A DNA stretch of 63,309 nucleotides, filler included, from Stramenopiles sp. TOSAG23-3 (lineage: Eukaryota): assembly GCA_900128585.1 (NCBI GenBank). It is 13 parts of 13 records of this genome, joined end to end, with 100 filler letters (N's around TTAATTAATTAA, not from the genome) between each part and the next. Parts side by side here need not be neighbours in the genome. Positions count along the whole stretch, not along the records: positions 12,072 to 17,990 come from LT643414.1; 12 more parts are not named here. One strand, written 5' to 3'. This document shows positions 5,942 to 41,941 of this stretch, in pieces (the stretch's first letter is position 1; each line of letters starts with the position of its first letter). Position numbers and translations under genes: made by a program. The notes under the pieces were generated by a model, which was not told the origin of the DNA, searched no databases, and saw nothing but the letters and a program-made list of their open reading frames with translations.

Positions 5942-6041
5942 NNNNNNNNNNNNNNNNNNNNNNNNNNNNNNNNNNNNNNNNNNNNTTAATTAATTAANNN
6001 NNNNNNNNNNNNNNNNNNNNNNNNNNNNNNNNNNNNNNNNN
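5942..6041. other. Artificial contig spacer (N44-TTAATTAATTAA-N44). Identical spacers at 11972-12071, 17991-18090, 24005-24104, 30017-30116, 36025-36124, 42033-42132, 48033-48132, 54019-54118, 59985-60084, 61094-61193 and 62202-62301
   Basis: The same six-frame stop linker occurs 12 times between N runs. Confidence 0.98.
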
Positions 6042-7422
6042 AATTGGAAGCGTTGAATCTTGAATTAGTACCAGTTACGTAAACAGCCCCCCCTTTATTT
6101 ACTGTTTCTGTGCTTGCATCCCCCCCCGTCAAGTTCAAATACTTCACCACCAGCTCTCCGCCGCTCTCGACTTTGAACAAACGGTTCGACCCGCCGCCGA
6201 TGATTTTTGGCAGGTTTCCTTGGGCGTCTGGAATCCCGGTGATGTTCAACGAGCCGGTGACGACGATTTGACTGTACAGGATGCAATCGCTGGAGATGGT
6301 GGCGCTCCCGCTGGTGGGAATATCGCAAGTGGTTGAAATATTAAGGTACGGGCCGCAACCGTGGGCGTTGCAGGCTTGAGCTGCTATCTCAACTTCACTG
6401 AATGGTAATTCCGTAACCATGACAGCCTGTTGGTCTGACTTCAATGCAGACAAAATCCCTAATTTGTTCAGCTTCATCGCCCCTGCATTAGCACTAGCTG
6501 TGGAAGTTGTATAACGAGTCGCAGCTTGATTACTACTGCTTAAGTCAATCATGCCATCACTATCACTCCATGTATTTTTGTTCGTAATTGCAGGAATATA
6601 ACAACGCTTCAAGTTAGAATTCGTCTCACATGTAAGGGAATGCAAACCATTGGCTATTTGTGTACTTGAACGTGCCTCGTGCCAAATTTTTACAAATGCA
6701 ATTTCTCCCTCGAATCCACCTACTGCTGCCGCTGAATTGGCTCGAGTAGTGAAAAAATTTGGACCACCATTCCCTGAACCTGAATATTTTACCTGACCAA
6801 CGGAAGCGAACGAAGACCAAGAGCCTGCAACTTCGCCGTCGACGTATAATGTGATTGATGTAGGTGTGAATACACCAGCGATATGATGCCATTTGTTAGC
6901 TTTTGGGCTTGCTATATCAACACCGCATAAACCTTTCTGAGCGGCCTGCCCTCCCTGATACTGTCCATTCGCTGAGCTACAATCTCCTGCAACGTGCCAC
7001 CGACCACCATGTAAACCTAAGACGTTAGGGTTAGGATAATTTATTCTAATCATCGTCTCTCCGCCACCATAACCACCTGAACTAAATACCATAGCGGCTT
7101 CTTTGTATCGCAATAACGCCTCGACTGTGATATTATTTGTATTACCTAAACCTGTTGTTGAAGTAGTAAGAATTGTCCCCTTGGGCACTTGTAAAGATTG
7201 AGTTGGACACCAAGTTGATAAACACCCTTGGGTTGCCATTGTGTAATTATAATGCGTCACTGCACTCCCCCCATCGTCCACCGGAGGCTCTACCGTCACT
7301 TCCAGCGTATTGTCGTCGATAATACGAATTCTTGCAGACTGTGGTGGTCCCGGCACGCCGGCATGCACAGAAATGCAAAGACAGGCGAGCAGTAATAAAA
7401 TAGGGAGTGTGTACGACTTCAT
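6042..7422 (-). CDS. Secreted/surface protein: signal peptide, split FN3 domain, LamG/concanavalin-like insert, start of PMP-like beta-helix repeats; 3'-truncated
   Basis: Signal MKSYTLPILLLLACLCISVHAG. FN3 N-half PGPP..LEVTVEPPVDDGGSAVTHY. LamG WHHIAGVF..LYVDGE..FEGEIAFVKIW. FN3 C-half AAQACNAHGCG. PMP-like NRLFKVESGG..LNLTGG..GGAVYV. Confidence 0.8.
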
Positions 7423-8154
7423 GGTGCAAAGAAAGAGTACGATCAACGCACTGGTAGATCTTTCTTGAACCGCGCTGGGATTCTTTCTCGCACGCTGAAA
7501 GGAACGTTTTTGATACGTACGCCGGAACTTTCGAACACCTGAAACTAGAAAACTTAAAGAACTGTCACCGGCTGGTCTTGGAGCTGCGTGGTACGAAGTC
7601 CGGTAAAGCGTTCGGTTATTGCGTAAACTTCACGGGCGCTTAAGAATTTTAGAGTATTAATACACACATTATTAAAAAAAGAAACCTTCAAAAAACAAGA
7701 AAATTGTGCCCGGTGGAAATGGGAGGGGGGTGGGGGGGGGGTGACCAACTTTGAGCAGATTCACACAGTAGGGACACAGTATTATATATTTAAACAATTG
7801 TCATCGACAAGTGCAACTACGAGACATCAAAAACTTCTAAAATATAACCTCTTTTTAAGTCGTCCTCTATCATTATAATAATAATAAAAAAAAGAGTAGT
7901 ATTTTATCTGTAATAACTGGCGGCTACCGCAGTTGTTGGGATTTTGTCGCAACACTACGCAACCAATTCAGTTTATCTGAAGTTTAATTAAGTACATGTT
8001 TCCGTAAAGTATTCTGGTCAATCCGAATAGGGTCTACAAAAAAGTTGTACTTGTAACGCGTCTAATAGGAAGTACAGATGTGCAGACTGTTAATAAGTCT
8101 TTTCTCTGATGAAAGATTGAAGAATGGATGGATGATGATGATGAAATGAGATGA

Positions 8155-8553: not shown

Positions 8554-10209
8554 ATGAGTGCTCGCAAGACAGTCGCCAACGCCGTCGGGGCTGCACTGAA
8601 TAAGAAGCAACGGAAGAGGCAGCTAATGAAAGAAGTTTGGGCGATCCGTAAATCGAACAAAAAACACCGCAAGGCCTCTGATAAAAAGGATCAAGCGGCT
8701 GATGCCCCGCAGCTAAATGGTGAGCCCAGCCGTGGCCAAATACGTCGCGCGAAGCTCAAAGAGGAATTTTTGAAACGAATCGAGAGGTCGCCGACAGTCC
8801 TGATAGATTTAGACTTTGAAGAGCAACTTTCAGACAAAGAAAAAAATAGTTTGGCGCAGCAAATTATGTATTGCTACGGAATGAATAAGAAAACAGATCG
8901 ACCGGTTCAAATGCACTTATCGTCCGTGCGCGGGGTCACGGAGACGTACCTAAAAAAGATTCCTGGTTTTCCAGAGTCTTGGGTTGGAGTGAAAGCCGAC
9001 GATAAACCGTATCTGACAACGTTCAAGGACAGGCGCGATTCGTTGGTTTACTTGACTGCAGATTCGCCAAATGTTATCGATAACTTAGACAATGACAAAA
9101 TTTACATTCTTGGGGGCATAGTAGACAGAAATCGTCTGAAAAATATTACCAAAGACAAGGCAGCTGAACAACACATCAAAACAGCCCGTTTCCCCCTGAA
9201 CAAATATTGTAAGATGGGCGTTGGGTCGAATGTCCTCACAATAAACCACTGCTTTGATATACTCTTGGCGCGCTTGGCTTCTGCAGACTGGCCCAGTGCA
9301 TTTTGCCGAGTTATTCCTACTCGGAAAGATTTGATGTTGCGAGATGAGTACAAAGATAAATACGCTTCGATGTTAGGCACGTTTGCCGCGCCCAAGGACT
9401 GCAAGCCTTCAAGAAGTGGGGAGGAAACGTCTGGCGCACGCCCAGAAGGGGGTGCTACTAAACTCACTGCGGCCGTTATTGGAGCCTCCAGCGGCATTGG
9501 GCTTGGGTTCGCAAAAGTACTGTACAAGCGCGGGTACGATGTGCTCATGGTAGGTAGGTCGGCAGCAAAGTTGGGGACGGCATCTGAGGAAGTACGTCGT
9601 GGATTGGAGACGGGTGGAAAAGTCTACACTTTTGTAGCAGATTGTGCTACTAAACGGGACTGTTACCTTTTAAGAGATTTTGTTAAAGCATCGTTTGGAA
9701 AAGGTAGAGGAAAACTTTCCTGCCTCGTCAATTCTGCCGGCACGTTTAAATGGGACAAAGATGTGCCTGCTGGGGAAGACCCAGCGGAGTATTTAAAAGC
9801 ATCGAATTACACAACAAAGCAAAATGTCTTGCAAATGCTGGTGCCGTTTCTCCTTCGCAAAAACTACAGCGATCTTCAAAATTCCGACGGCAAGACGTTC
9901 GATGATCTCCCGCGCGTAATATTGGTCGGTTCCCAAGCAGGGCAACCGAACTTTGTGGAAGAAATAGAAAAAAAAGAGGGGAAAGGCGCCGCAGATGGCG
10001 AGCTTGGGTACATCAATGCAATGTCGGCACTCCGTACATGGGCCATTAGGATGAAAGATTCTTTGGGGAGAAAAGGAATACACATTCAGTTGCTAGAACC
10101 TGGATTAATCGACACTGCCATGGCAAGAAAAGAATTCAGCCATTTTGGGATAGATTGGTCAAACATACAAAAGCCCGTAGATTTTGCAAAGAGTGCCATC
10201 GATTATTAA
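8554..10209 (+). CDS. TRM10: Trm10-family tRNA m1R9 methyltransferase (SPOUT) fused to a short-chain dehydrogenase/reductase domain
   Basis: Trm10 motifs SLAQQIMYCYG, LVYLTADS, YILGGIVDRNR, KTARFP and VLTINH. SDR motifs VIGASSGIG, LVNSAG, VILVGSQAG and LLEPGLIDTAM. One uninterrupted frame. Confidence 0.9.
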   Translation: MSARKTVANAVGAALNKKQRKRQLMKEVWAIRKSNKKHRKASDKKDQAADAPQLNGEPSRGQIRRAKLKEEFLKRIERSPTVLIDLDFEEQLSDKEKNSLAQQIMYCYGMNKKTDRPVQMHLSSVRGVTETYLKKIPGFPESWVGVKADDKPYLTTFKDRRDSLVYLTADSPNVIDNLDNDKIYILGGIVDRNRLKNITKDKAAEQHIKTARFPLNKYCKMGVGSNVLTINHCFDILLARLASADWPSAFCRVIPTRKDLMLRDEYKDKYASMLGTFAAPKDCKPSRSGEETSGARPEGGATKLTAAVIGASSGIGLGFAKVLYKRGYDVLMVGRSAAKLGTASEEVRRGLETGGKVYTFVADCATKRDCYLLRDFVKASFGKGRGKLSCLVNSAGTFKWDKDVPAGEDPAEYLKASNYTTKQNVLQMLVPFLLRKNYSDLQNSDGKTFDDLPRVILVGSQAGQPNFVEEIEKKEGKGAADGELGYINAMSALRTWAIRMKDSLGRKGIHIQLLEPGLIDTAMARKEFSHFGIDWSNIQKPVDFAKSAIDY

Positions 10210-10674: not shown

Positions 10675-10803
10675 NNNNNNNNNNNNNNNNNNNNNNNNNN
10701 NNNNNNNNNNNNNNNNNNNNNNNNNNNNNNNNNNNNNNNNNNNNNNNNNNNNNNNNNNNNNNNNNNNNNNNNNNNNNNNNNNNNNNNNNNNNNNNNNNNN
10801 NNN
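10675..10803. other. Internal scaffold gap (no stop linker)
   Basis: Plain N run inside contig 2. Confidence 0.95.
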
Positions 10804-11058
10804 TTTTTTTCATTGATCGATCCGGTCAGGTCGGTCAGGTCGGTGGTGAGATTTTTGTTGTTGTTACTTCTTCTTTCACTACTTACCAACTACAAGTAGT
10901 TTTTTATTATTATCATTAATATTTGATTTATTCTTGATAAACTGCGCGACATATATCACCTTAGAAAGCATTCTTTGGCGTCATTTGGAGAAGATTGTTT
11001 CCTCGTATCGGTTTGCATAACCCCAGTCAGTTAGAAAACTTCCTTTCCGTTGCTCCCC

Positions 11059-11971
11059 ATGAGTAGGAAGAGGACACCACGAGTTGCCCCAGTTGCACGG
11101 TCGTCCCAGTGTAATGAAAGCTTCGCATTTCAGTGCTCCCTTGGGTACGAGCCCAGGCCATTAAAGATGGTGAGTGCCTGGAACTTGAAAGGTATGCACA
11201 GCAACAACCCGGAGTGGGAAAACGATGAAAGCTTGCGGTGCTTTAATATAACCCCTGCAGAGTTAAAATATGGCCCCATCCAAATCGACCATAAATATAC
11301 GCTAAAGTTAAAGTTTCGGAACAGAGGAAATTTCACAGCCAGAGCACGGCTGCAACCGTTCAAGCCGGAAAAATTATGCACAGAAGAGGAAAACCTTATC
11401 TGGGCGTCAGGACACACCATTACTATTGCCCCAGGGTGCTGCAAGACGATTGGGATATCTGTATTAGGCCGTTCCTTGGGTCACCTTCATCATGTCCTAA
11501 AAGTTACAACGGAAAGAAAAATATACGAAATACCTATGTCTGCTGAGGTCATGGACCAGGACGAACACGCAGAAACAGTGCAGTGGAACAAGCTCCGGAA
11601 GAAAATGAAGGCGAGTGCAAAGCAGCAAGGTGGTGGAACGGGCAAGAAAATAAATGAAATAGAGCTTATAGCTAATGGGGACGAGGGAGTAGGCGATTAC
11701 TTGTACGACGGTGACAAGTACACGTCAGAGATCTCAAACGCATACCTCAATTCGAAATGGGATGAGTTTTCCAAACGAGTAATAATAGACCATCGAGAAA
11801 AGTGGGTACTGCGCCCTGACGTAAACATTGACAGAAAAACTTTGGAAGATAACTACAACAAAACTTTTAAAACAGCAAAGTCAAAATGGACATCATTCAA
11901 AGATAGGTTCAAAACTGGGGGTGCGGCAAAGTCTTTGTTTAAGCAAACAGGCCACCACACACCGAAAGAAG
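11059..11971 (+). CDS. ASH/PapD-like Ig-domain protein, probably ciliary; 3'-truncated
   Basis: ITPAELKYGPI..YTLKLKFRNRG..IAPG..LKVTTE..YEIPMSAEV fits the ASH-domain pattern. ATG at 11059. Confidence 0.55.
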
Positions 11972-12071
11972 NNNNNNNNNNNNNNNNNNNNNNNNNNNNN
12001 NNNNNNNNNNNNNNNTTAATTAATTAANNNNNNNNNNNNNNNNNNNNNNNNNNNNNNNNNNNNNNNNNNNN

Positions 12072-12192: not shown

Positions 12193-15100
12193 TTAAGAGG
12201 TTGACCTGCCCTTTTGAAGCAACCGGCGGCCGCCACGGCGAGAGCCTTGCCTACCCTGAAGCAACCTTCGGCCACGACTCTGTTGCACTTTCAATCCCTT
12301 CTTCTCACCTTCCAACATCTCTTTCAGCGCCGTTTCAAAATTGTCGTCGGCTTTCTTGCGACAGAACGTGACCTCCCCGGAGCTCATCTCGCTCTCTTCC
12401 CACCCTGCAAGGCAGGTTTTTCGAAGCGGGGTTACTGTTGGAACAGCACGATGTGCTGTTGGCGATCGCGACTTTACAAAGCTGCCAATGTTATCTCGCA
12501 CGCACTGGCGAGTGTAATCCAGGCGAACGTCTTGGACAACGCCCGGGGTCAAGTCGTGATCCACTCTTGTAAGGTTTATTTCAACAAGGAAACATTTTCG
12601 GTCCCCATCCCTCTCCCTAATCCCCGATACCACAAACCTGCCCTGGTTGCAACCGTTCAGGATTCCCCCGTTGCGGACGAGCTCGCAGACCATTGTGTTG
12701 TCTTTGTACGTTTGCCCCTTGCACACGTGCCTCTGTTTGGTGTCATTGGCGTACGATGGTTCACACTCGCACCGCGGGCGGTAAAACCCCTTTTCTTTGT
12801 CCCAATTTTCTTCTCGTATCCATGGGATTTCAGTACCGTCTGCACTGTACGTCGAAGTGACAGGGATCGCAGAGAGTTTGTAGCCCGCGGCATTCGGGAA
12901 TGGATACCCCTTTGCCCCGTAGCACTTCTTGCAGTCCTCTGCGCACTGAAACCCGTCCAGGGATTCCCCTTCGGTTTTCCACCCGCCTTCAATGGCATCG
13001 GCTTCGGATTTCTCTATACCAACCGTTGTTTTTTTACCCATATTCAATTTCATATCATCCCACCAGTAATTAAACTTTGCAGTCTCCTTCCGGCGAAACA
13101 GCTTAAACAAGTTTGGTTCGGGCAGTGCGATTCCGGGGCATTGGCTTTCAGTCATAAGGATATTTTTTTTTGACTCTTTGATAGAGCATGCTTGGTATTT
13201 GTTTTCGATTCGTTGTGGCATACTCGTAAACAAATCCAGTGCCCTGTCCGCAATCACTACGGGTGTGAGCCTTGTCGGCGTGTTCCATGGCCGCTTCGGT
13301 TCCTTCTCTTTTGGAATTTTAATCATTGACCCTCTGGCAACTAGGCAGTGTTCCTTACCCTTGCGGCACGGCAAGCATTTGGCCGATGACAAATGCCCTG
13401 CTCTGTTGGTATCTGGACAAGGGTCGCTCCAGTGGAAGCATTTACTTTCTGTAGTATCGCCATTTTCGCGGCACTGGGCTGCCCGACTTTTTATCCGTAA
13501 CCACGTCGTATCACTCTTCTTTTTGTCGGGGAGGAGTTCACCATTTTTGTCGTAGCCACCATAACCTCGAAATATATTTTTCAAGTCCGCGAAAAAGGGG
13601 TTTGCGTCGTACTCCAACATCTCACCACGGTCGCCGTGTAGGCTGCCCATGCTTGAAATAATGCCCCCGTCGGCTACGTATCCCCAAAACTTGATTTGTT
13701 TTCCCAATTTTTGAGTAAAATAGTCCAGCACAATGTTTGCAAGAACGTTCGGGGAATAAACATTGATGTACATGTCCCCTGGGTTCTCCGCGATATCTTC
13801 CAGCACTTCAAGGGCCCCTTTAAAACTTTTTTTCAGTTTCTTCAACTCTTTCTTGCAGTCTTCAACTTTTTTTTCTTTTGAGCACCTCTCTTCGGGTATG
13901 TTTTTCACTTCTTCCTTGATCCACACCAAATCGGTCTGAGTAGTGGTGCCCTTCTTTTCTTCCCCCATCGCAATCTGGTACAGTTCCTCCTTTTTCCAGC
14001 CTTCGAGGCCGTCCCGTAGAAGTTGAAGAGCATCGTCCAAAAAACGAACAAAGTATTTCGAGCGCAAAGTCGCCATAAACTCGTCGTAAGTCGCTGTCCC
14101 CTTGTACATTATGTCACGCTGTCTCAATCCCCAGTAAAACACTTTCTTGACAGCACTTGAGAGCCCGTCCGCTGCACCTTTCGACATTGTCGTAAGGCTT
14201 AATTCGGAGATATCATTTTTCTTGAATTGTACCACTTTCTTTGCATTCCGCACTTTGGAGTAGGAAGTTTGGTCCATTTTATTGAAAGCAAACAACGGCG
14301 CCAGGTATTTCATCTCCATATTTTCGTTCAATTCGTGTTCGGAAACAAACTGCTGCATTTTGTAAAAGTGGTAGATAAGAAGTGCAATTGGCACATGTTT
14401 TTCACCGACCGTGCCTAGGAACTCTGTTAGCTTTTGTGTCCCTGAAAAAGAAGAAATAGAGCACAAGTCAACGTGAAGCTGATCTGGTGTTGCTGCGTAA
14501 AATATATCCAGGACCTTCATGGCTTGATAGGCAGCCTGTCCAACACCATATTCCTTAGAGCCTTCATCCGGGCTTTTATCGTTTATCTCCTTCACTATCT
14601 TCTCAAACCCTTTGCGAACGTTCTTGTAGTCACGAGTAACGTCGCCCACACTTATACGGTCCCTGACATACCCTGTTCTCGGGTCCCCTCTTTTGTCAAG
14701 AAGTTTCCAAAATAAACGGAAATCATAAGCGACGTTGATAAACTGCTGCAAGTTTCCAACGAAGCAGTCGTCCCCGAGCAGCTCCTCGACCCAATTGAGA
14801 GGGTCGTTTGTCCGATTGCACATGCTCGCGAAAGTCTTTAACAGTGGCGACGCATTGACTTTGTTTTCTGCTTCCTTTTCGAGGTCGCGGATTTTTGCGT
14901 TTAAAATTTCTAGGATGGACGTTCTGAAACCGTCTATAAGTTTATCTTTCCCTACAGCTTTCACAACAAGTCCGCACACGTCATTATTCCCGAAGTGAAG
15001 GTCCACTTTTAATTTAGAACTGTCAATCTTCGGTACCGTTATATCAATGAGGTTCTTTGCGTCGTCGGTAAACCCAATGGAGGTTTCAAAGTCTGTTTTC

Positions 15101-17364
15101 CCATACTGACCCTCGATCCACCCGTTGCACGCATGTTCAAGGGACGACAATTTAGCTAAACTTTTCCCATTCTTTTTTACTTCGGAACTAATTTTTTCGT
15201 TGACAAAATTTTCCACTTTCTTTTCAAATTCGAGGAGTTTTGAATTGAACAATTTAGGGATAAACTTTTTGAAACCGTTTATAAGCTTCGCTTTTCCTAC
15301 AAGCTTTACTACAACTCCGCACACGTCATTGTTACCGAAGTGAAGGGCCAAGTTTAATTTCGAAATGTCAATCTTCGGTGCCGTTACATCAATGAATTTA
15401 TTTGGGTCGCTGGTAAACTGAATGGAGGTTCCAACGTCTGCTTTTCCATACGAACCCTCGATCCACCCGTCGCACATATTTTGGAGTGGTGACGGGTTAA
15501 CGTTCCCTTTCTTTTCTACTTCGGAACTAATTTGTTCGTTGACAAATTTTTCCACTTTCTTTTCTAATTCGGGAATTTTATCGTTGAGAACCTTTTCCAC
15601 TTGCCCCTTGATCATGTTTATAATCTTCCCCTTCCCTTTAAACTTCACCGCGATTTCGCACACGTTATCGACGTGAAAGTTAATTCTCAACTTGGAAAAG
15701 TCAATCTTCGGCGGGATTACATTAATGAAGTTCTTTGGGTCGTTGGTAAACTCAATGGAGGCTTCAAGGTCTGCTTTCCCGTACTCCGCTTCGACCCACC
15801 CGTCGCACTTGACTTTGTTTGTCACCACGGTCTTTACCACTTGGACCGCCTTTTTGACAAACTTTACGGCTCTCTTGACTGTCTTTTTGAAAAACTTTCC
15901 GATCTTCTTGAAAAACTTCTTCGACCTTGCAGAGGCCCTTCGACGGAACAGTTTTCGTTCCCCGGTCTGGAGAAACATGAAAAATAGCTTTCTTCTGATT
16001 TTCAACTTCAACCGTCGGAGCTTCACGTCGATTCCTTTTATCTTTACCGTATAACGGTTCTTGTGGCGTGGATGCTTCTCGATCAGGATCTTGTCAACGT
16101 TGAATCTCTCGAGGGTGAGGGCGCCTTGGAAAGTCACCCCTTCCTTTGAAGGAAGTTGTATCGCTGCAATTTTCTCTTTGACCTTTTGAAGAAGAGCGTT
16201 TTTGTGCTTTGCTATGAGCGGGTTAAGATGGCGGATCAAGGGCTCCAAAGATTTGAGTTTCAGGTTCAACCTGGCCTTCCCGTCAACTCCTATCATCTTC
16301 ATCGTATAATGGCGCTGCTGGTGTGGATGCTTTTCGATCAGGATCTTCGAAACGTCCAATTTCTGCAGTTCAAAGGCGCCCGGAAAGGCCTCCCCTCCCA
16401 CCGAAGGGAGTTTTATGTTTTCTACTTTGTCTCTTGCCTGTTTAAGGAAAGCGTCTTTTATACCATTATCTGCTATCAATGTGTTAATATGGCGGACCAA
16501 CGGCTCGAACGTTTTGAGTCTCGTTATCATCTTTGCCTTCGCGTCGACTCCTTCCATCTTCATCTTAAAGGTGTACTTCTTCTTCTCGATCAGGATCTTA
16601 TCAACGTTGAGTCTCCTAAGGTCAATGTCGACCGGGACGGCCTCCCCTCCCAGTGAAGGGAGCTGTATGTTTTCTACTTTGTCTCTGGCCTTTTGAAGGA
16701 AATCGTCTTTATATTGCTCGAGGACCGGGTTCAGTACGGGGACGAATTTCCCGAACGTGCCTCGCATGCACTGCGGATAATCGACATCGTCGACATCGAC
16801 CTTCTTCCGCACCGGGACCTCTTCCAAAAAGCTTACGGTGTTTTCGGGTTTCTTCCTGAGCGCCTTTTTCGCAGCCATGGAACGTTTTAGATCTTTTGGG
16901 TTTTTCTTCTTCAGCGCTGAGACGGTCGGTACGGTTGTTGCTCCTGTCGGTGGTGACGCTCGGGCCATCATATCCTCCTTGCCGTACGAGGGAAACTCCG
17001 TTTCAGAGCACGCCCGCCCATCCAACTGGTCTTTGTATTTTTCAAAGGATTGAATTTTACTATGGTCCCTCTCTTCGCTCTTGCAGGTCTCACTGTTCTC
17101 TGCGGAGTCTTTAAATGCTTTAGTAAGCTTTGTAATAAAGTCCACAGCACCACTAATAACTTCTAGTTGATCCTCTTTCTTGAGGACAAGTTGGCGTATC
17201 GTTTCAACAAATACACTTTCATTGCCATTTTTTAATTTGCACGTATTTGGATGATGATATATGCTCTCTGCACAAGTGTATGGTTTCCCATGCGTTCCGT
17301 CCGCCGGGAGGAGCAAGGCGTGCAACACCAGTACGCAGCAGACTACGGCAACAGACTTAATCAT
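12193..17364 (-). CDS. 1723-aa secreted protein with three BPI/LBP(TULIP)-like repeats, a cationic amphipathic helix and a Cys-rich C-terminal region
   Basis: Signal peptide MIKSVAVVCCVLVLHALLLPADG. Three A-repeats (..LQKARDKVENIQLPS..NVDKILIEK..) followed by three B-repeats (CxGWxExxYGKxD..PKIDxSKL..VC). RRLL motifs at the C-terminus. The fold call is inference. Confidence 0.75.
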   Translation of the reverse strand: MIKSVAVVCCVLVLHALLLPADGTHGKPYTCAESIYHHPNTCKLKNGNESVFVETIRQLVLKKEDQLEVISGAVDFITKLTKAFKDSAENSETCKSEERDHSKIQSFEKYKDQLDGRACSETEFPSYGKEDMMARASPPTGATTVPTVSALKKKNPKDLKRSMAAKKALRKKPENTVSFLEEVPVRKKVDVDDVDYPQCMRGTFGKFVPVLNPVLEQYKDDFLQKARDKVENIQLPSLGGEAVPVDIDLRRLNVDKILIEKKKYTFKMKMEGVDAKAKMITRLKTFEPLVRHINTLIADNGIKDAFLKQARDKVENIKLPSVGGEAFPGAFELQKLDVSKILIEKHPHQQRHYTMKMIGVDGKARLNLKLKSLEPLIRHLNPLIAKHKNALLQKVKEKIAAIQLPSKEGVTFQGALTLERFNVDKILIEKHPRHKNRYTVKIKGIDVKLRRLKLKIRRKLFFMFLQTGERKLFRRRASARSKKFFKKIGKFFKKTVKRAVKFVKKAVQVVKTVVTNKVKCDGWVEAEYGKADLEASIEFTNDPKNFINVIPPKIDFSKLRINFHVDNVCEIAVKFKGKGKIINMIKGQVEKVLNDKIPELEKKVEKFVNEQISSEVEKKGNVNPSPLQNMCDGWIEGSYGKADVGTSIQFTSDPNKFIDVTAPKIDISKLNLALHFGNNDVCGVVVKLVGKAKLINGFKKFIPKLFNSKLLEFEKKVENFVNEKISSEVKKNGKSLAKLSSLEHACNGWIEGQYGKTDFETSIGFTDDAKNLIDITVPKIDSSKLKVDLHFGNNDVCGLVVKAVGKDKLIDGFRTSILEILNAKIRDLEKEAENKVNASPLLKTFASMCNRTNDPLNWVEELLGDDCFVGNLQQFINVAYDFRLFWKLLDKRGDPRTGYVRDRISVGDVTRDYKNVRKGFEKIVKEINDKSPDEGSKEYGVGQAAYQAMKVLDIFYAATPDQLHVDLCSISSFSGTQKLTEFLGTVGEKHVPIALLIYHFYKMQQFVSEHELNENMEMKYLAPLFAFNKMDQTSYSKVRNAKKVVQFKKNDISELSLTTMSKGAADGLSSAVKKVFYWGLRQRDIMYKGTATYDEFMATLRSKYFVRFLDDALQLLRDGLEGWKKEELYQIAMGEEKKGTTTQTDLVWIKEEVKNIPEERCSKEKKVEDCKKELKKLKKSFKGALEVLEDIAENPGDMYINVYSPNVLANIVLDYFTQKLGKQIKFWGYVADGGIISSMGSLHGDRGEMLEYDANPFFADLKNIFRGYGGYDKNGELLPDKKKSDTTWLRIKSRAAQCRENGDTTESKCFHWSDPCPDTNRAGHLSSAKCLPCRKGKEHCLVARGSMIKIPKEKEPKRPWNTPTRLTPVVIADRALDLFTSMPQRIENKYQACSIKESKKNILMTESQCPGIALPEPNLFKLFRRKETAKFNYWWDDMKLNMGKKTTVGIEKSEADAIEGGWKTEGESLDGFQCAEDCKKCYGAKGYPFPNAAGYKLSAIPVTSTYSADGTEIPWIREENWDKEKGFYRPRCECEPSYANDTKQRHVCKGQTYKDNTMVCELVRNGGILNGCNQGRFVVSGIRERDGDRKCFLVEINLTRVDHDLTPGVVQDVRLDYTRQCVRDNIGSFVKSRSPTAHRAVPTVTPLRKTCLAGWEESEMSSGEVTFCRKKADDNFETALKEMLEGEKKGLKVQQSRGRRLLQGRQGSRRGGRRLLQKGRSTS

Positions 17365-17990: not shown

Positions 17991-18230
17991 NNNNNNNNNN
18001 NNNNNNNNNNNNNNNNNNNNNNNNNNNNNNNNNNTTAATTAATTAANNNNNNNNNNNNNNNNNNNNNNNNNNNNNNNNNNNNNNNNNNNNATAAGTAGAT
18101 TTATATAGAAATTTGTGTTTGTGTAAATAGATATACCCCATTCTATTTTGTGACACCGTTTGTTTGTTTATTTCTTTGTCCGCGTCTGCGCAGAAATTCC
18201 TCGTCCGTACCTTTCCGTTCCAACCCTAAG

Positions 18231-19213: not shown

Positions 19214-22200
19214 TCAATCCATAAACTTATACACGTCCGTATTCAACTGGTCTAGCCGCTTCTTCAACGCGGTGGACAGAAAAATTCTTTCTATCGCTTT
19301 GAACAGCCGTTCTTCGGTTACCAGCGTTCGCCAAAATTTCTCTACCTTGTGGTGTTTCTGGAGCAACGGCATCACGACGTCCATTTCAGAGTCTACCAAA
19401 GCCGGGGCCAAGAGGCTCAAAATTGCGATGGCAGTACGAAACAAATAGGTGACCCCATCCAGGAGAAAATTGTCCCATACCCGCGATGCGATCTTAAGCG
19501 GCAGGTACTTTAAGAACACGGTCTGAATCCACGGGAACAAGTACATGTCGGAATTCACGTTTAAATTCTGGAAATGAACGTAAACGTTGTTCAACGAACT
19601 CTCCAGCGCGCTGTCAAACAAGCTCAGGTACTGATGAATCAGCGACGAATCGAGCAGGTAGAATACGAACAAGTGGTCCTTTACCATCAAGTTCACCAGG
19701 CACTGAAACGTAAGGTACTGGTCTGATATGTTCAGCAGCAGCATAGCAGCCATGTAGCTCATCCCCTGAACGTACCCCAAGTCGGGCCGGTGCATTGCGA
19801 ACGCCTCCAGGCACTCCCGCAGCGGCTTGCTCCACGGACCTTCGCCCCCGAACAGGTTTAGCCCAGGGAAAGTTCTGGCCAAATCAGCGTCAATGAGCGC
19901 CAAAGAGAGCGCCTCCTTCTTCGAGCCGTCCCCCTCCTCTACCGAACCATCCGCCAGCTTTTGGGAATGCAACTGCTTCGCGTGATTGAGCGTTATCCTG
20001 TACATTTTGGGGGTAACCTTCACAGCGTTCCCAATAATGCGCGGCCATGCAAACTCCCGCATTTGGAACGGTATGCCCGACCGGCATAGGTTTACCACCC
20101 ATTTTTCATTCCGTATGGAGTGCCACTGTGGAATGATCTGGGTTTCCCAGCGTTCGCGAAGGATACGGAGACGCTTGGTTTTGTTCTTTTCGTCTTTGGA
20201 GTCAATCACTTCTACGTCGGACAGCCGGGTCTTACGGACAATGTTAGACGCGTCGACCTTTTTCTTGCAAAGAACAAAAGTAGTGTTGAAGGCGCAAAAT
20301 ATTTGCATGTCGTCGCCTGGAACAATCGGAACCAACTTGGACTCGTCGTCCTTGTCGTTCTCATCGCCGATAGATCCTACCGACTTTGGAAAGAGAACGG
20401 GAGTGGGCGTGCCGCGCTGAATTTTGTGCCCGAGGCCCAGCGCACCCACAGTATTTGAGCCCCAGCTAAACACGCGCCCCTCTGAGGTCCCACATACGGT
20501 GTGAAAGGCCCCACAAGCAATAGTCTTCACTTTGTCGTGCTCCCCCAAGTCACGCTCCAAGTCAACGTACTGGGGCGAAGGCTCAAATATGGATGCCGTG
20601 CCCAACTGCCCACTCTCACCCCCGCCCCAGGCGTACACGCCGCCGTTTGCACACAGGGCTACTGTGTGCACGTGGCCGCAAGCGACGTCTACGACATCTT
20701 TCCCCTTCAAGGCCTTAATCGTGGCCGGGTACAGTTCATTCTTCATTTCCCCCGACCCGCACTGCCCCGTCTGGCCATTACCCCACATGAGCAGGCTCGT
20801 CCCTCGCTCCATCGAGACAGAGCCTGCGGTTTTTCTCCTCCCACCGAAGTAGAATTTATTGGTCGACTTTTTCTCCAGGCTTGGCGACGCAGAGGATTTC
20901 CCGGGAAGACCTTTCTTGCCCTGCTTATCCAGTTTCGGGGAGCCCCGCTCCCCCCGCCCCCCCTCATCTTCGCCTATTTGCACCACATTGCTACTGCCAA
21001 CGTTTTTCGAGAAAAATTGCGTGAAAATGTTCCCTTTCTTCGTTTTCACCCCTTCTATTGCAACGACCGCCGAAAAATCCCAGCCGCAGGCTATGTTCAG
21101 AATAGCGCCGACGTTCATCTCCACCAGGGTAGGCACCGTCTTTGACTCTTCGGTGCCCAGCCCTAAGCGACCATCGCTTCCATCGCCGCACGTATATACA
21201 AGGTTGTTTGCGGACAGAAACATGCTATGGTGACTCCCACACGCAAGTTGTGTTATGACATCTCCCAGAAGGTTCTCACATTTGCGAGGAACACTTTCAT
21301 CGTTTCTCGTTCCGTGCCCTAGGCATCCCTCTGACCCGTCACCCCAGGAGTACACCCGCCCATCGCCGGTGAGCGCGAGAATGTGGTGAGAGCCGCAAGA
21401 CACTTTTATGATGCGGGACGCATTTTTCGTCAAAGCGCGCTCCAGCGCCAATGTTCGAAAAATTCTCGGCGCCGGACCGCTCTCACTTTCGTTCGAGTTT
21501 TCAGTGTTTCCGCTCACAAATACATCCCCGTTCGCATCCAAATAATAACACGACGTGACTTGCCAAGCACACGCAACCTGGGTAACGTTCAGGCCGACGC
21601 TGTGGCAGCGCGGGCGCAGCGAGACAGGGGACTGACTTTGCACATCATCAAACACTTGGCCCCACACCCATAAATTATTCTCGTCCGCGAGCAACTCCAC
21701 GGCACCCTCGTTGTTTTCATTTTTGGAGTCGTCCGTGAGGTCACGAACCTGTTCCACATCGACGCTGGTGGCGTCGAGCCCTCCGCTCTCGCCAACATTG
21801 TCCCCGTCCCCTTCGCCTTGGCTCGGCCGTTTGGGGCTATGGCCAGCAGAGACCAGACTGGTCTTCTGCGGAATTAAATTGATATTGTCGGTTGTGTGAG
21901 AAAGCAAAAATTGAACCTTTTCTTTGTATTGAACAAACACCTTCCTCCCGTACTTTTCGATAAACGAGTGCTTTACCGCCGTGTAGGTAAGTTTTTTCCC
22001 GCCACTGTCGATCATACTGCGCAACTCCTCGAGCATTGGGTGTTCCTGGGCGATCTTATCGATTTGTCCACTATTTCGTTGCGGTGACGGGGGGGTTGCA
22101 TCGCTCTCGCCTAACGCCTCATTGTCCGTCTTTTCTACAAGCTTTGCGTCCGCGGGAACGGTGTCGACTTCGACCGGTTTCTGTCGTCTTTCCCGAAGCA

Positions 22201-22456
22201 CTTCCTTCACTTCCAGCAACGCCCCTTCGGATATTTTAGAAGATACCAGTTCTGTGGCACGTACCTTCTCCTGCTTGAGCTCACTCTCCAGAGCACTCAT
22301 CTCATTCTTCATGGTTATATTCGCCAACGTCAAAGCCGCTATTTTTTCGTGCAAGGCGTTTATTTCCGTATGGGTCGACCGCCCAGCCGTGGTGTGCACA
22401 GCGCCAGTGCCCTGCTGCGACTCCCGCTTTTTCTTTGACGACGAAAACTTAAACAT
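19214..22456 (-). CDS. RCC1-repeat plus Rab-GAP TBC domain protein with N-terminal coiled coil
   Basis: RCC1 repeats (CGSHHILAL..VYSWGDG..GCLGHG). TBC motifs GIP..R..AW, IDADLARTFP and YVQGMSY. Confidence 0.9.
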   Translation of the reverse strand: MFKFSSSKKKRESQQGTGAVHTTAGRSTHTEINALHEKIAALTLANITMKNEMSALESELKQEKVRATELVSSKISEGALLEVKEVLRERRQKPVEVDTVPADAKLVEKTDNEALGESDATPPSPQRNSGQIDKIAQEHPMLEELRSMIDSGGKKLTYTAVKHSFIEKYGRKVFVQYKEKVQFLLSHTTDNINLIPQKTSLVSAGHSPKRPSQGEGDGDNVGESGGLDATSVDVEQVRDLTDDSKNENNEGAVELLADENNLWVWGQVFDDVQSQSPVSLRPRCHSVGLNVTQVACAWQVTSCYYLDANGDVFVSGNTENSNESESGPAPRIFRTLALERALTKNASRIIKVSCGSHHILALTGDGRVYSWGDGSEGCLGHGTRNDESVPRKCENLLGDVITQLACGSHHSMFLSANNLVYTCGDGSDGRLGLGTEESKTVPTLVEMNVGAILNIACGWDFSAVVAIEGVKTKKGNIFTQFFSKNVGSSNVVQIGEDEGGRGERGSPKLDKQGKKGLPGKSSASPSLEKKSTNKFYFGGRRKTAGSVSMERGTSLLMWGNGQTGQCGSGEMKNELYPATIKALKGKDVVDVACGHVHTVALCANGGVYAWGGGESGQLGTASIFEPSPQYVDLERDLGEHDKVKTIACGAFHTVCGTSEGRVFSWGSNTVGALGLGHKIQRGTPTPVLFPKSVGSIGDENDKDDESKLVPIVPGDDMQIFCAFNTTFVLCKKKVDASNIVRKTRLSDVEVIDSKDEKNKTKRLRILRERWETQIIPQWHSIRNEKWVVNLCRSGIPFQMREFAWPRIIGNAVKVTPKMYRITLNHAKQLHSQKLADGSVEEGDGSKKEALSLALIDADLARTFPGLNLFGGEGPWSKPLRECLEAFAMHRPDLGYVQGMSYMAAMLLLNISDQYLTFQCLVNLMVKDHLFVFYLLDSSLIHQYLSLFDSALESSLNNVYVHFQNLNVNSDMYLFPWIQTVFLKYLPLKIASRVWDNFLLDGVTYLFRTAIAILSLLAPALVDSEMDVVMPLLQKHHKVEKFWRTLVTEERLFKAIERIFLSTALKKRLDQLNTDVYKFMD

Positions 22457-22992
22457 TTCGTATTTTTCCTGCCAAACCAACCAATCCACCAATCAGAACC
22501 AATCCAAAGAAGAAAGAACAAAAAGAGGGATAAAAAGAAGAAAAAACATATAGCTGTCATTAAACTTGTATTTGTTATTTATCAATCCATATATCAAAAA
22601 ATAAGTTTTGGAACTTCTATATCTAATAATATGAAAAAATATCGAACACACACGACGACGGATGTGATGATGATAATAGATATTTTAGTCCTAAGAAGAG
22701 AAGCTAAGAAGAGAATACTAAGATAATATTTCCTTAAAAGTACAATAAAAATAGTACAGTAGTAGTATTATTATTATAAACACATCATATAGAAACAGGA
22801 AGAAGGGAGGAATATTTTTTTTATTTTGTTGTTTTTTCCACTTTCAATTCGTAAGAAAAGAAGAAATATTATATATAAAAATATATATATAGGAATAATA
22901 AATAATATGATAACGGAGAATGTGCGCTTCCACATTATTGTTCAAAGTACCGTCGTTCTGCTTCAAGGTTCGTACGGATTAAAAAATATTTT

Positions 22993-38181: not shown

Positions 38182-38746
38182 ATTTAATAGTAATAATAAA
38201 TATAGAAGACTAAATTTATATATTATTCCCCGCGGCGAAGAAGGAAGGGAGGACAAATATTTTTATTATTACATTTTATTAATTCTTCTTCTTCCTGCTT
38301 CTTCTTCTTTTATTTCTATTTTTTTTTATAATTGGATTTCATTTTAGACGATTGTTTTAGTATTCTATTGGTTGTTCTTCTTCCTTCTTCACATCTTCTT
38401 CTTTTTTCATTTATTATTATTATTCTACGAGGATTCGACGATGATGATTTGATTTTTATACTGCCTACTATTACTACCACTATAATTATATTATTAATAA
38501 ATTCTCCTCTTTTTTTTCTTTCTCTTCTCGTGTGTAAGTGTCAGACAGAGAAAAGAAAGAAGAAATTAGAAAACAGGAAACTAAACAATCAAACAATGTT
38601 TGCAATCATTTGAATAAGTTTCCTGTTGTTTATAGGTGTCCTTTTTCTGTGTGCGTGTGTGTTTGTGTGCTCACTACTTGCTTGGTCAAGTCTTGCGTTG
38701 GTTAACTAAGATCGTCGTGCCTTTCTCCGGAGCAAGAAACAGAAAG

Positions 38747-41700
38747 ATGGACAGGGCCAAGTATGTTGTCGTGGGGGCAATGAAGGAAAACCGTAGGAGT
38801 CTTCCCGCGTATTCGTTGGGTGTGTGCACATGTTTCATTGCCATAACTGTTGCGGCGATGATGCACAGTGTGCTTGAGCAGGCCCCTGCGATTTATTTAG
38901 CGAGTGCTGAGTTGGAGGAGGGCCAAGTGGACGTCCGCGTGAAGCCTGCCGACGGCCCCAGCCCCGTCCTGTTCAACTTTTCTCGGGCAGAAAAGCGCCT
39001 TGAAAAGTTCGAGGAGTTCAAGTTTGCCGTCCCCCGCTTTGCTATTATCGGTTCAATCAAAGCCGCGGGCTCCGCAAAAGCGACGCAAGTGCAGCTGTTC
39101 GCCGCCGGCCTGGAGGGCGAAAAAAAAGCGGGCATTGGCCGAGGGTGGGATACGAAGAAATTTCCCCCTCTGGGGTACGGGGAAGCTTACTTGCAAGACA
39201 AGGTAGCCAGTTTGTTGGGCCTAGGGGTCGGCGATACGTTTCAGGTAGGAATGGGTATGTTTCCCCTTTTTCGCTACTTTGACAGGAAGCCGACCCGAAA
39301 TACCACAGATTTTTTCACGCGCTACGGAGGAGATGGATTTTTCAGTGGTTGTCAGAATTCGGGCTGTAAATGCGAGAGTGGAAGCAGCGACAAGGAGTCG
39401 AGGTGCCTCCTGTGCGACGCTTCCGTTGACTCTTGCGGTTTTCGACCGGACTCCACTAAGATTAGTTTGACGATAAGAGGCCTAGTTCGCGATTGGGATG
39501 GAAAAGTCCGGAACGATGTCTCCAACGGGTTACTAGTTGACTACAGTCATTTTTTTCGGTCTGTTTGGAACAGCCAGCCCATGTACGTACGAATGAATAT
39601 GCTGCCAGAGTTGAAGAAGCTTTTTCCGAAGGAGACGTTTACCGACTCGACTGCCCATGTGGTCGAAGGCTCGGAGGCGTTCGGTAAGCAGTTTGCTTCG
39701 GAGATGATCGTTATGATACCCCCGAAGAAGCGGGGCCAAATTTTGATCCAGGATGACTACAACTTTATCCAGGCGGACATGGTCAACTTCACCTCGGCCA
39801 TCGTGAACACTCTTGGCGCGTTGGATGCCATCCAGTACGAAACCCCCGTGGTCCGGCAGCTGAGGCGCAACAGGTTTACCAGCATGTACTTGGCGCTGAT
39901 CCTGGACATTCTCGTGTTCATCCTCTCGGTGCTGTCGATCGTGCTCATCTACAGTTTGCTCATGATAAACGTGGAATCTCGAACCTTTGAAATTGCGATC
40001 AGGCGAATGCTCGGGAGCACTCGGCGGGATGTTATCGTCCTTCTGGGGGCCCAAGCATTGTCGTACTCCGTGCCGGCACTGGTGATAGGGATGCCGGTCG
40101 CGGCTGCGGGTACCACCAACTTCGTGAATCTGCTGAGCTCGCGGTTGGCCGGAATACCGCTTCAGGGTGGCCTTACGGCCGGGGGCGTCCTCTATGGGCT
40201 GCTCCTTGGCCTCCTCATCCCAATAGTCGCAAGCATAGGTCCGATCAAGACCGCCCTGGAGAAACGGCTCGTTGAGGCCTTGGACACCAAAAGGTCCGTT
40301 CCGGGGGTTAAATTTACCATTTCACGAAATATGGAGGGGAAAGTGTACCGGCCATTTCTGGTTGTCGGCTTTTGCTTGACTCTGTTCGGATTCATCGTGT
40401 ACTACTTCCTTCCCCTTTCGCTGCTGTCTTTCAACGTGGGGCTGTTGGGGAGAATTTTCTTTTTCATATTGTTGGGGCTCCTGTTCGGGCTTGCATTTCT
40501 GAGCCTAAACCTCGAGCAGGCAATGGAGCACGCCGTCATGTTCGTCTTCTTTCGCTGTCTCGTGAAGAAACACTTGCGCGTAACAACTTTGAAAAATCTG
40601 GTGGCGCATCGTGTTCGAAATTTAAAGACGTCGATGATGTACGCAATATCCCTTTCTTTCATCATCATGGTGAATGTGTTTAGTAATATACAGCTCCAGG
40701 CGTACCAATTCTATTTGCTTCAGTCTCGGGGCGGAAATATGGTGGTGTTTGGGACAAGGTTTGTGCCAGGAACCTTGGGAAAGTCGCTGACCTTTCAAGA
40801 CGCGCAGGCCTTTCAAACCATTATTAAGAACGACAGCTTCGTGAACTCGAGAATAGAAGGCGTCGCGTGGGCGTCGCAGCCTGTCCGTTCGGTTCGGGGC
40901 GATGCAGAAAATACGGTCGGGACCCAAGGGCGGATTTTTGCCCGAGGCGACGTCGGGGTGATGGCAGTTTCTCCGAACTACTTTGAAATAGCAACCCCCG
41001 ACTTTTTGAAGGTGAAGGATGACTGGGCGTGGTCGTCGAAGTTTCTATCGGGCCTATCGTTCGGGGAGCAGATGTACACCGCTCGGGGCACGCAGAGCGT
41101 GATTCTTCCGTCGGCGTACATAAAGGCTCTAAACATTGGAATGGGCAAAAACGATCCAGAGCCAAGCCCTGTTGAAGTTATGGTGAACTTTCCGGACGAG
41201 AGCGAGAATTCCGACGGTCTGTCGAACAAGAAAAGGTACAGGTTTCTTCCCAATCACATGTTTCACAACATTGCTGGCTTACGGTTTAGCGAGTACAGGG
41301 AGGGAAACTTGCAGGTTCTGGTGCCTCTACCGGTTCTGAAGAAGTTTCTGGGCGGGGTCATCCCGTCGATAGAGGACATGTTGTTTCAAAAGCTGGTGCT
41401 AAGGCTGAAACCTGGGCTGAGCGAGGACGAGGTTGACACGATTGCCAAAAGCCTCTCGGGTGCCGTAAAGGACAAAAGTGTGCAAGGGAGCGTGTTCAAT
41501 TACAACGATCGCCTTCAGCAAATTGAGTCCAGTGTTGAAACGATAGACATGGTGTTCCTCGGTATGACCACTGTAGGAATGACGCTTTGCTTCTTCTCAT
41601 TGCTTGCTTCGATGGTCAGCAATATTGCAGAGCAAACCAAAGACATCGCGATCCTTCGGGCCCTGGGCCTCCGGAAGAGCGAGATCATTTGCATTTCTTG

Positions 41701-41941
41701 CCTGGAAGCGTTCATACTGGTGATTGCTGCCAGTTTCCTGGGTGGTGCTGCCGGTTGGTTTGTCAGTTGGACCATCAGCCAGCAACGGCAGCTGATTACA
41801 GGGACCCCCGCGACATTTTACTTTCCGGTTGAGCTTACCTTCTTCATAATATTTCTAGCAGCATTTTTTGCTCTGTTGTCTGCTGGCATTCCCTCAAGAA
41901 TTTACGTACAGAAATATATCGCCGACTTGATGCGTATGTGA
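38747..41941 (+). CDS. FtsX/MacB-type (ABC3) permease, duplicated
   Basis: Two FtsX signatures (VESRTFEIAIRRMLGS and IAEQTKDIAILRALGL), multiple TM segments and large extracytoplasmic loops. Confidence 0.85.
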   Translation: MDRAKYVVVGAMKENRRSLPAYSLGVCTCFIAITVAAMMHSVLEQAPAIYLASAELEEGQVDVRVKPADGPSPVLFNFSRAEKRLEKFEEFKFAVPRFAIIGSIKAAGSAKATQVQLFAAGLEGEKKAGIGRGWDTKKFPPLGYGEAYLQDKVASLLGLGVGDTFQVGMGMFPLFRYFDRKPTRNTTDFFTRYGGDGFFSGCQNSGCKCESGSSDKESRCLLCDASVDSCGFRPDSTKISLTIRGLVRDWDGKVRNDVSNGLLVDYSHFFRSVWNSQPMYVRMNMLPELKKLFPKETFTDSTAHVVEGSEAFGKQFASEMIVMIPPKKRGQILIQDDYNFIQADMVNFTSAIVNTLGALDAIQYETPVVRQLRRNRFTSMYLALILDILVFILSVLSIVLIYSLLMINVESRTFEIAIRRMLGSTRRDVIVLLGAQALSYSVPALVIGMPVAAAGTTNFVNLLSSRLAGIPLQGGLTAGGVLYGLLLGLLIPIVASIGPIKTALEKRLVEALDTKRSVPGVKFTISRNMEGKVYRPFLVVGFCLTLFGFIVYYFLPLSLLSFNVGLLGRIFFFILLGLLFGLAFLSLNLEQAMEHAVMFVFFRCLVKKHLRVTTLKNLVAHRVRNLKTSMMYAISLSFIIMVNVFSNIQLQAYQFYLLQSRGGNMVVFGTRFVPGTLGKSLTFQDAQAFQTIIKNDSFVNSRIEGVAWASQPVRSVRGDAENTVGTQGRIFARGDVGVMAVSPNYFEIATPDFLKVKDDWAWSSKFLSGLSFGEQMYTARGTQSVILPSAYIKALNIGMGKNDPEPSPVEVMVNFPDESENSDGLSNKKRYRFLPNHMFHNIAGLRFSEYREGNLQVLVPLPVLKKFLGGVIPSIEDMLFQKLVLRLKPGLSEDEVDTIAKSLSGAVKDKSVQGSVFNYNDRLQQIESSVETIDMVFLGMTTVGMTLCFFSLLASMVSNIAEQTKDIAILRALGLRKSEIICISCLEAFILVIAASFLGGAAGWFVSWTISQQRQLITGTPATFYFPVELTFFIIFLAAFFALLSAGIPSRIYVQKYIADLMRM

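Follow-up and report, generated by a model that had tools for sequence, protein, structure and literature searches.

TULIP domains are known as single barrels, as tandems of an N-terminal and a C-terminal barrel (BPI, CETP) and as head-to-head dimers (SMP). Here we examine a protein-coding gene in a 63,309-nucleotide stretch of DNA (the window) from Stramenopiles sp. TOSAG23-3 (GenBank assembly GCA_900128585.1), which consists of 13 parts of 13 records joined end to end; the gene lies in the part taken from LT643414.1. Its product, P0001, is a large protein in which three copies of one repeat (A) are followed by three copies of another (B). An earlier reading of this DNA, made without database searches (the sequence-only reading), had proposed that these repeats form three BPI/LBP-like domains nested inside one another. 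Our conclusion is that P0001 likely represents a TULIP family invisible to Pfam, with an unusual AAA-BBB architecture.

According to the published definition, a TULIP domain is an alpha-beta4-alpha meander of six elements; the two ends of its chain lie at the 'head', and its first element may be mixed alpha/beta (PMC5507252). BPI has a cationic N-terminal domain that binds to lipopolysaccharide and disrupts the bacterial envelope (PMC8187252). BPI-like proteins have multiplied in the bacterivorous diplomonads, with 40 in Trepomonas sp. PC1 and several in Giardia and Spironucleus (PMC4967989), and BpiC is required for the permeabilisation of bacteria in Dictyostelium phagosomes (PMC10107278).

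Two repeat types and the unit they form

The six repeat segments of P0001 were compared with one another by BLASTP. All three A-A pairs were significant (56, 48 and 41% identity; E = 8.8e-26, 2.7e-22 and 2.3e-16), as were all three B-B pairs (56, 59 and 48% identity; E = 8.3e-39, 4.4e-41 and 3.1e-29). Because no A-B comparison reached significance (best alignment E = 0.18), there are two repeat types, arranged AAA-BBB. At the DNA level the A copies recur with periods of 255 and 252 nt (70% and 61% identity to the reference copy) and the B copies with periods of 345 and 333-339 nt (74-83% identity). The sequence-only reading had placed three A's and then three B's, not ABABAB, on the minus strand, over ranges that translate to residues 205-282, 285-369, 372-459, 519-615, 629-729 and 744-839. 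Those positions hold, the order agrees with both BLASTP and DNA periodicity, and its consensus motifs agree with the BLASTP alignments. It numbered the B copies in the reverse order; here B1 adjoins the insert that follows A3 (the tip insert) and B3 is the most C-terminal, which gives A1-A2-A3-insert-B1-B2-B3, or outer-N and inner-N followed by inner-C and outer-C. Each A continues straight into the next with no connector. A C-terminal extension of 12 residues is present on B1 and B2, each of which precedes another B, and is lacking in B3 and in relatives with a single B, whose B tail the tail of B3 resembles. At the other end of the array, A1 is preceded by a cysteine-containing cap, and the same cap precedes the single A of P0002 and P0003, two of the relatives described below.

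An exhaustive phmmer search of 1.84 billion cluster representatives retrieved eight relatives at E <= 0.001, one of them a 99-residue fragment (P0005). A word-indexed search returned P0002 and P0003 only, and the same two alone came from a profile search of proteins of 107-1750 residues in which the best 8000 word-sharing candidates were scored; a search of proteins of 2535-5000 residues gave no useful relative. Because the candidates scored and the length ranges were limited, further architectures may exist. In bacterial and archaeal genomes, searched with a single-protein query, none of 297 pattern matches was confirmed as a relative.

Architectures were assigned by running hidden Markov model (HMM) profiles of A and B over the relatives and reading the results together with the sequences. 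P0001 (1723 residues) is AAA-linker-BBB, P0002 (1448 residues) is A-linker-BBB, and both P0003 (1362 residues) and P0010, a distant full-length orthologue of 1391 residues, are A-linker-B. P0004 (726 residues) has A-linker-B followed by A-B, and the fragments P0006, P0007, P0008 and P0009 hold pieces of such units. Every complete unit runs A then B, and a short turn joins the two in P0006, P0009 and the second unit of P0004. Because relatives carry A-linker-B once, or A-B-A-B, we take A plus B to be one domain.

The comparison with relatives also indicates which halves are old. A3 shares 81% identity with the lone A of P0002 and 72% with P0003's, and B1 shares 95% with B1 of P0002 and 77% with the single B of P0003; therefore A3-linker-B1 is the ancestral unit, to which the other four halves were added. 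Identity between P0001 and P0002 is a mosaic: 95% in B1, 98% in B2, 81% in A3, 59% in B3, about 46% in the N-terminal region and about 64% elsewhere. Taken with the grouping of P0002 B3 among B2 copies (see below), such a pattern points to gene conversion, or to recombination among alleles or paralogous genes. The P0002 sequence derives from one contig of 4997 nt and has a C-terminal end that is unlike the family's and terminates early, so the record may be incomplete or the gene defective. The fragment P0005 is 86% identical to P0001 over 35 residues, spanning the cap and the start of A1, and then diverges; a prediction error or a frameshift probably produced it from a close relative that possesses an A1-like copy.

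Likeness to the TULIP fold

We modelled the ancestral unit (residues 375-625, A3-linker-B1) with AlphaFold2 (AF2) from a 12-row alignment of units and half-units. The model consists of a helix (model residues 2-27), strands at 36-39, 44-48, 51-56, 63-75 and 78-82, a helical linker, strands at 146-165, 173-176 and 185-191, and a final helix at 194-245. Read from this secondary-structure string as six elements, the model agrees with the TULIP domain in element order and lengths. By the published definition A would then supply elements 1-3 and B elements 4-6, and the break between them would fall at the element 3-4 hairpin, at the 'tail' of the barrel. A pair of cysteines is conserved in 13 of 13 aligned B halves; in the model one lies where element 4 begins and the other where element 6 begins, a placement at which a disulfide at the tail end is plausible.

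When the unit model was compared with the PDB by Foldseek, the first two matches were BPI (1ewf) and LBP (4m4d_A), with E = 3.4e-3, probability 1.00 and template modelling (TM) scores by query of 0.36-0.38. The next were SPLUNC1, JHBP, Mdm12, CETP, BSP30b, TMEM24-SMP, E-Syt2-SMP, BPIFA1, Mmm1, Takeout and group-7 mite allergens. Judged by their descriptions, 27 of the 30 matches listed, including the first 20, are TULIP entries, and they come from six or more distinct families; the other three rows listed, a TolC complex and two pleurotolysin-type pores, had low probability. In a language-model (Atlas) search with residues 376-625, the nearest clusters were BPIFB4, Grp7 allergen and JHBP, with a score of 0.78 that is rated a lead and lies within the range reached by shuffled sequences.

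Several results count against this assignment. No Pfam family scored above its cut-off in any of nine members, LBP_BPI_CETP matched none of the nine at E <= 1, and searches of PDB sequences, with a profile and with single sequences, gave matches at chance level only and no BPI-family chain at E <= 10; at the level of sequence, P0001 falls outside PF01273 and LBP_BPI_CETP_C. Confidence in the unit model is medium, with a mean predicted local distance difference test (pLDDT) of 63.5, a predicted TM score (pTM) of 0.48 and 90 of 251 residues at 70-90. The pairing of A strands with B strands and the internal cavity are predictions read from the order of secondary-structure elements. None of the Foldseek matches reached E <= 0.001, and TM scores stayed below 0.5 (0.36-0.39 by query; best by target 0.48, for 3uv1_A).

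These results can also be read to mean that the likeness is spurious, and that A (a helix and a beta-meander) and B (a beta-hairpin and a helix) are unrelated small modules that merely co-occur. This would account for the silence of every TULIP profile, for Foldseek E values of 3e-3 and above, and for an Atlas score that shuffled sequences can match. It fits poorly with the convergence of two different methods, the language-model search and Foldseek, on one superfamily, with the dominance of TULIP entries from several families in the Foldseek matches listed, and with an element order and lengths that follow the definition (PMC5507252). In addition, all full units seen are A then B, never the reverse, and A never occurs alone among them. 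We therefore regard a spurious likeness as improbable and consider it likely that A plus B forms a TULIP-like barrel. The proposal of the sequence-only reading, that A plus B make one BPI/TULIP-like barrel broken at its long hairpin tip, is upheld to this extent by the one-unit relatives, the element order of the model, the leading BPI and LBP matches and the weak language-model score. By its own account, a lack of such similarity in profile and structure searches would count against it: sequence profiles found none, and the resemblance emerged only from the structure and language-model comparisons.

Pairing of the halves, growth of the array and possible function

If A3 and B1 form the ancestral barrel, the question is what the four added halves do. 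We scored the core positions that are kept hydrophobic across the family. A1 keeps 26 of 30 and A2 25 of 30, against 26-30 of 30 in seven reference A units, and B2 keeps 29 of 31 and B3 28 of 31, against 29-31 of 31 in eight reference B units (P2_A, with 30/30, and P7_A, with 26/30, were also scored and served neither as reference nor as test). Because the extra halves keep this core, they probably fold as the true halves do, and their hydrophobic face would be exposed if they lacked a partner. A and B numbers in P0001 are equal, three and three.

Since a TULIP barrel has its 3-4 hairpin at the tail and both its ends at the head, a whole barrel can replace the hairpin tip of another without long connectors. 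With A3:B1 fixed and the connectors short, nested pairing alone would need no long crossing connection. By our reasoning, with crossed pairing (A2:B3, A1:B2) one barrel would have to bring its head and its tail together. Nesting would thus be the least strained arrangement. The element charges are +3, +4 and +7 for element 3 of the A's and -5, -2 and -2 for element 4 of the B's, and the most basic, A3 (+7), adjoins the most acidic, B1 (-5). We put nested pairing of all six halves (A1:B3, A2:B2, A3:B1) somewhat below an even chance.

The evidence that weighs against nesting, or fails to favour it, comes from the array model, the relatives and the divergence of the copies. An AF2 model of residues 190-880 (9-row alignment) had a pLDDT of 44.0, a pTM of 0.26 and only 4 of 691 residues at 70 or above; it drew A1 and A2, which had no orthologues in its alignment, as helices. 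The model was unreadable and gave no sign of the pairing of A with B across the array, for which the sequence-only reading had proposed such a model. Among the four relatives whose full architecture can be read, N-terminal and C-terminal pieces stand at 1:1 in P0003 and P0010, at 2:2 in P0004 and at 1:3 in P0002, which lacks A1 and A2 although it matches P0001 at 95% identity in B1 and 98% in B2. Equal numbers are thus not kept in all relatives; either unpaired B halves are tolerated, as it seems, or the P0002 record is defective, and the premise that every half has a partner is weakened. The sequence-only reading had envisaged homologues with other numbers of nested domains: the one-unit form exists, whereas the two units of P0004 lie in tandem and P0002 has one A to three B's.

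In maximum-likelihood trees A1 and A2 form a clade (support 99/100), as do the extra B's, B2 and B3 (96/98); the extra-copy clades stand in a polytomy with the ancestral copies, and B3 of P0002 groups with B2 copies. Synonymous distances between copies are 0.47-0.87, in a similar range for A's and B's, and mirror each other in neither pairing scheme; dN/dS between copies is 0.52-0.66. For the duplication order that the sequence-only reading had proposed to infer from repeat divergence, the distances and dN/dS favour neither nested nor parallel pairing, and the trees leave a polytomy. Because the extra A's and extra B's form separate clades and P0002 has one A and three B's, the halves were duplicated, or lost, independently, and we read the history of the array as separate tandem half-domain duplication (or loss) on each side of the hairpin. 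In the sequence-only reading, every added domain would have gone into the tip of its predecessor. The separate clades and P0002 speak against such whole-domain insertion as the way in which the array arose. The final structure may be nested all the same.

The same observations suit an arrangement in which only A3-insert-B1 forms a barrel and no extra half is completed by another of the same chain. The extra halves might instead remain half-barrels, left open, or form amphipathic sheets, with lipid or membrane bound in either case, or A1 and A2 might pair with B2 and B3 of other chains to give swapped dimers or polymers. P0002 demonstrates that unequal numbers occur in nature, the A and B arrays expanded as separate clades, and the array model gave no confident pairing within the chain. 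We nevertheless think this unlikely, since the extra halves retain buried hydrophobic positions that would be exposed without a partner, P0001 itself has A's and B's in equal number, and P0002, from its single contig with a divergent and early-stopping C-terminus, may not be a sound witness. Far less probable is that all six halves pair without nesting, for example as side-by-side antiparallel barrels A1:B1, A2:B2 and A3:B3 with the cationic linker crossing the bundle. From the directions of the elements, we reason that a linker of 52 residues makes this geometry possible, and the synonymous distances favour neither scheme. It would, however, part A3 from B1, the pair that follow one another directly in every relative, match the relatives most closely and show the strongest charge complementarity; moreover, one-unit relatives have a cationic linker of similar length with nothing to cross.

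The insert at the tail hairpin has a character of its own. In P0001 it carries a net charge of +18 over 52 residues, and the 18-residue helical hydrophobic moment peaks here for the protein as a whole (0.79 at residues 482-499, charge +9); its pLDDT in the unit model is low. The inserts of P0002, P0003, P0004 and P0007 differ in sequence and share this character (net +19 to +30, moments 0.77-0.83), while that of P0010 is short and nearly neutral. Across the family the insert at this hairpin is 50-80 residues long. Runs of basic residues flank and punctuate the insert of P0001, and release of peptides from it by proteolysis is therefore possible, if speculative. In P0003, residues ~225-300 hold a second copy of the start of the insert (FLETGG..LFRRR..SKK.FFKK-like, net +18), upstream of its single A and outside any barrel.

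The explanation that we favour, tentatively and as not quite an even call, joins these parts. Residues 203-851 would be a BPI-like (TULIP) lipid-binding module in a large secreted protein of an intron-poor eukaryote. One barrel would comprise an A half, with a helix and strands as elements 1-3, and a B half, whose elements 4-6 are a pair of long strands and the long helix; the two would be joined at a tail hairpin that bears the strongly cationic, amphipathic helical insert. Tandem duplications, those of A on one side of the hairpin and those of B on the other, would have produced three copies of each half around the ancestral A3-insert-B1, and the extra halves would complete each other as A2:B2 and A1:B3. 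The head of each inner barrel, where both its chain ends lie, would sit on the opened tail hairpin of the next outer barrel, and the outcome would be three barrels stacked head to tail as a rod, the cationic helix lying at its far tip. We rate a three-level self-nested TULIP rod of this kind, grown by mirrored tandem duplication of half-domains and ending in a helix like that of a cationic antimicrobial peptide, as rather doubtful.

As to function, the tip helix might let the rod dock on anionic membranes, of which bacterial envelopes are the most plausible, in the manner of the cationic N-terminal domain of BPI; the barrels might then bind or extract lipid, so that the target is permeabilised or sampled, and the conserved cysteine-rich C-terminal region might hold or aim the rod. 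If the halves nest, the three barrels would serve as a stalk or as a longer tube for binding lipid, and the tip would be held some three barrel lengths away from the remainder of the protein. A membrane-targeting role is possible, with the balance slightly against it, and it should be remembered that the function proposed for the array is drawn by analogy. The nearest models for it are BPI, the diplomonad BPI-like proteins and BpiC of Dictyostelium.

Several consequences follow if these proposals hold. A rare TULIP family that Pfam does not see would be added, represented by eight clusters among 1.84 billion representative proteins. Nested pairing would mean that mirrored duplication of half-domains can lengthen a lipid tube, by way of intermediates whose halves are not all paired, like the 1A:3B relative P0002. 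A true rod would represent a novel route to longer lipid-binding tubes, as well as a novel device by which a microbial eukaryote attacks membranes or samples lipids. A cationic amphipathic helix built in where the tail of the barrel meets its target would provide a membrane-docking mechanism that is directly testable.

The gene, its surroundings and comparison with described systems

Translation of the window gives P0001 as a single uninterrupted open reading frame (ORF) without introns (Table 1). The gene is free of N runs, the nearest being at 12028-12071 and 17991-18034, and a tblastn search found no second copy of it in the window. The first 23 residues have a short positive start, a hydrophobic stretch and a cleavage region of small residues, and the N-termini of P0002, P0003 and P0004 resemble that of P0001. 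By eye, no membrane-spanning hydrophobic stretch follows in the translation, and P0001 looks like a secreted protein with a putative signal peptide.

Table 1. Position of the P0001 gene and its parts along the window
Feature	Residues	Window position	Strand	Description
Whole gene P0001	1-1723	12193..17364	-	stop codon included
Putative signal peptide	1-23	17296..17364	-	read by eye from translation
A1	203-290	16495..16758	-	extra N-half, predicted TULIP elements 1-3; HMM E 1.1e-43
A2	291-375	16240..16494	-	extra N-half; BLASTP, HMM
A3	376-462	15979..16239	-	ancestral N-half; helix then strands, predicted elements 1-3; AF2 model residues 2-82
Tip insert	463-514	15823..15978	-	cationic amphipathic helical linker, predicted junction of elements 3/4
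B1	515-625	15490..15822	-	ancestral C-half; two long strands and long helix, predicted elements 4-6; AF2 model residues 146-245
B2	626-740	15145..15489	-	extra C-half; BLASTP, HMM
B3	741-851	14812..15144	-	extra C-half; BLASTP, HMM
Middle region	852-1285	13510..14811	-	common to P0002, P0003 and P0010 (alignment)
C-terminal Cys-rich region	1286-1723	12196..13509	-	20 Cys, net charge +22

Beyond the array, neither the middle region nor the C-terminal region had a Pfam match, and residues 1285-1690 gave no usable match in the Atlas search. The C-terminal region is the best conserved part of P0001 in the alignment, and its 438 residues hold the majority of the 34 cysteines of the protein. A conserved basic motif, RRLLQ, lies a few residues before the C-terminal end (window 12196-12290, minus strand); it occurs twice in P0001, twice in P0003 and once in P0010, and could be a sorting or processing signal.

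The rest of the window is gene-dense, with long intron-free ORFs that change strand every ~1-3 genes. A reading of the window as a kinetoplastid polycistron was dropped because of these strand changes. The Pfam matches of its ORFs are plainly eukaryotic (DCP1, importin-11-like, RCC1 with TBC, ankyrin with kinase, Band 7), and no tRNA genes or Rfam families were found in the window. An ORF of 551 residues (8554-10209, plus strand) fuses a tRNA (guanine-1)-methyltransferase (residues 90-258) to a short-chain dehydrogenase (residues 305-434), families that we take to be those forming the MRPP1/MRPP2 subcomplex of animal mitochondrial RNase P. An ORF of 1101 residues (38636-41941, plus strand) has two matches to the FtsX-like permease C-terminal domain (E 8.7e-26) in this otherwise eukaryotic window, and one of 1092 residues (19214-22492, minus strand) has five RCC1 repeats and a RabGAP-TBC domain. 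About 5 kb from the P0001 gene along the window, an ORF of 486 residues (5986-7446, minus strand) encodes a concanavalin-A-like lectin/glucanase (Laminin_G_3) domain; one run of 44 N's (5998-6041) lies inside it and another (5942-5985) abuts its 3' end. Such paired 44-N runs recur every ~6.0 kb (for example 5942-5985/5998-6041, 11972-12015/12028-12071 and 17991-18034/18047-18090). So even a spacing was read as a sign of masking and not of gaps in the assembly; 100 letters of filler separate the joined parts of the window. There is also a run of 129 N's at 10675-10803, and the 3' end of the ORF at 11050-12027 is cut by a 44-N pair.

Among described systems, the N-terminal barrel of BPI, LBP and CETP (PF01273; PDB 1ewf, 4m4d, 2obd) provides the best structural matches of the A3-B1 model. 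P0001 resembles it in being secreted (by its putative signal peptide), in the order of a helix, a beta-meander and a long helix, and in its cationic character at one end. The N-terminal barrel of BPI has one disulfide, which ties element 5 to element 6 (PMC5507252). The B halves also have a cysteine pair, which the model places differently, at the starts of elements 4 and 6. Unlike BPI, LBP and CETP, P0001 has no profile match and no double-barrel boomerang of N-terminal and C-terminal barrels, whereas it has an amphipathic insert of 50-80 residues at the element 3-4 hairpin and arrays of half-domains in the order AAA-BBB.

The Foldseek and Atlas neighbours include the short PLUNC protein BPIFA1, BSP30b, Takeout/JHBP and the mite group-7 allergens, in which the functional unit consists of a single barrel, as in P0003 and P0010. 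Those proteins are stand-alone barrels of ~200 residues; here, the barrel would be a module within a protein of 1360-1720 residues that also has two conserved regions of no recognisable family. The BPI-like proteins of Trepomonas, Giardia and Spironucleus and BpiC of Dictyostelium are likewise of BPI type and from microbial eukaryotes, and in the accounts cited above they are proposed or shown to act on ingested bacteria. They are recognised by sequence and the P0001 family is not.

ApiTULIP and TrypTULIP of the TUPA-like proteins are protist TULIP-like domains that were revealed by structure alone and whose nearest solved structures are Der p 7 and BPI (bioRxiv 10.64898/2026.09.11.750981); by this account, protist TULIPs that profiles do not see are already known. 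Those domains are fused to PqiA-type membrane domains, whereas P0001 has no such domain. Neither a nested TULIP nor one with separately multiplied halves was among the papers listed by full-text searches of open-access papers and bioRxiv, and the sequence-only reading likewise knew of no described TULIP protein with such a topology. Self-nesting itself has a precedent in another fold: in SI3 of the cyanobacterial RNA polymerase beta' subunit, hybrid-motif domains are inserted into one another up to six levels deep (PMC13114784). That nesting was seen in structures of a cytoplasmic enzyme, while the nesting of P0001 is inferred. Set beside these systems, the P0001 family is likely a TULIP family at the level of fold and matches no described TULIP family at the level of sequence.

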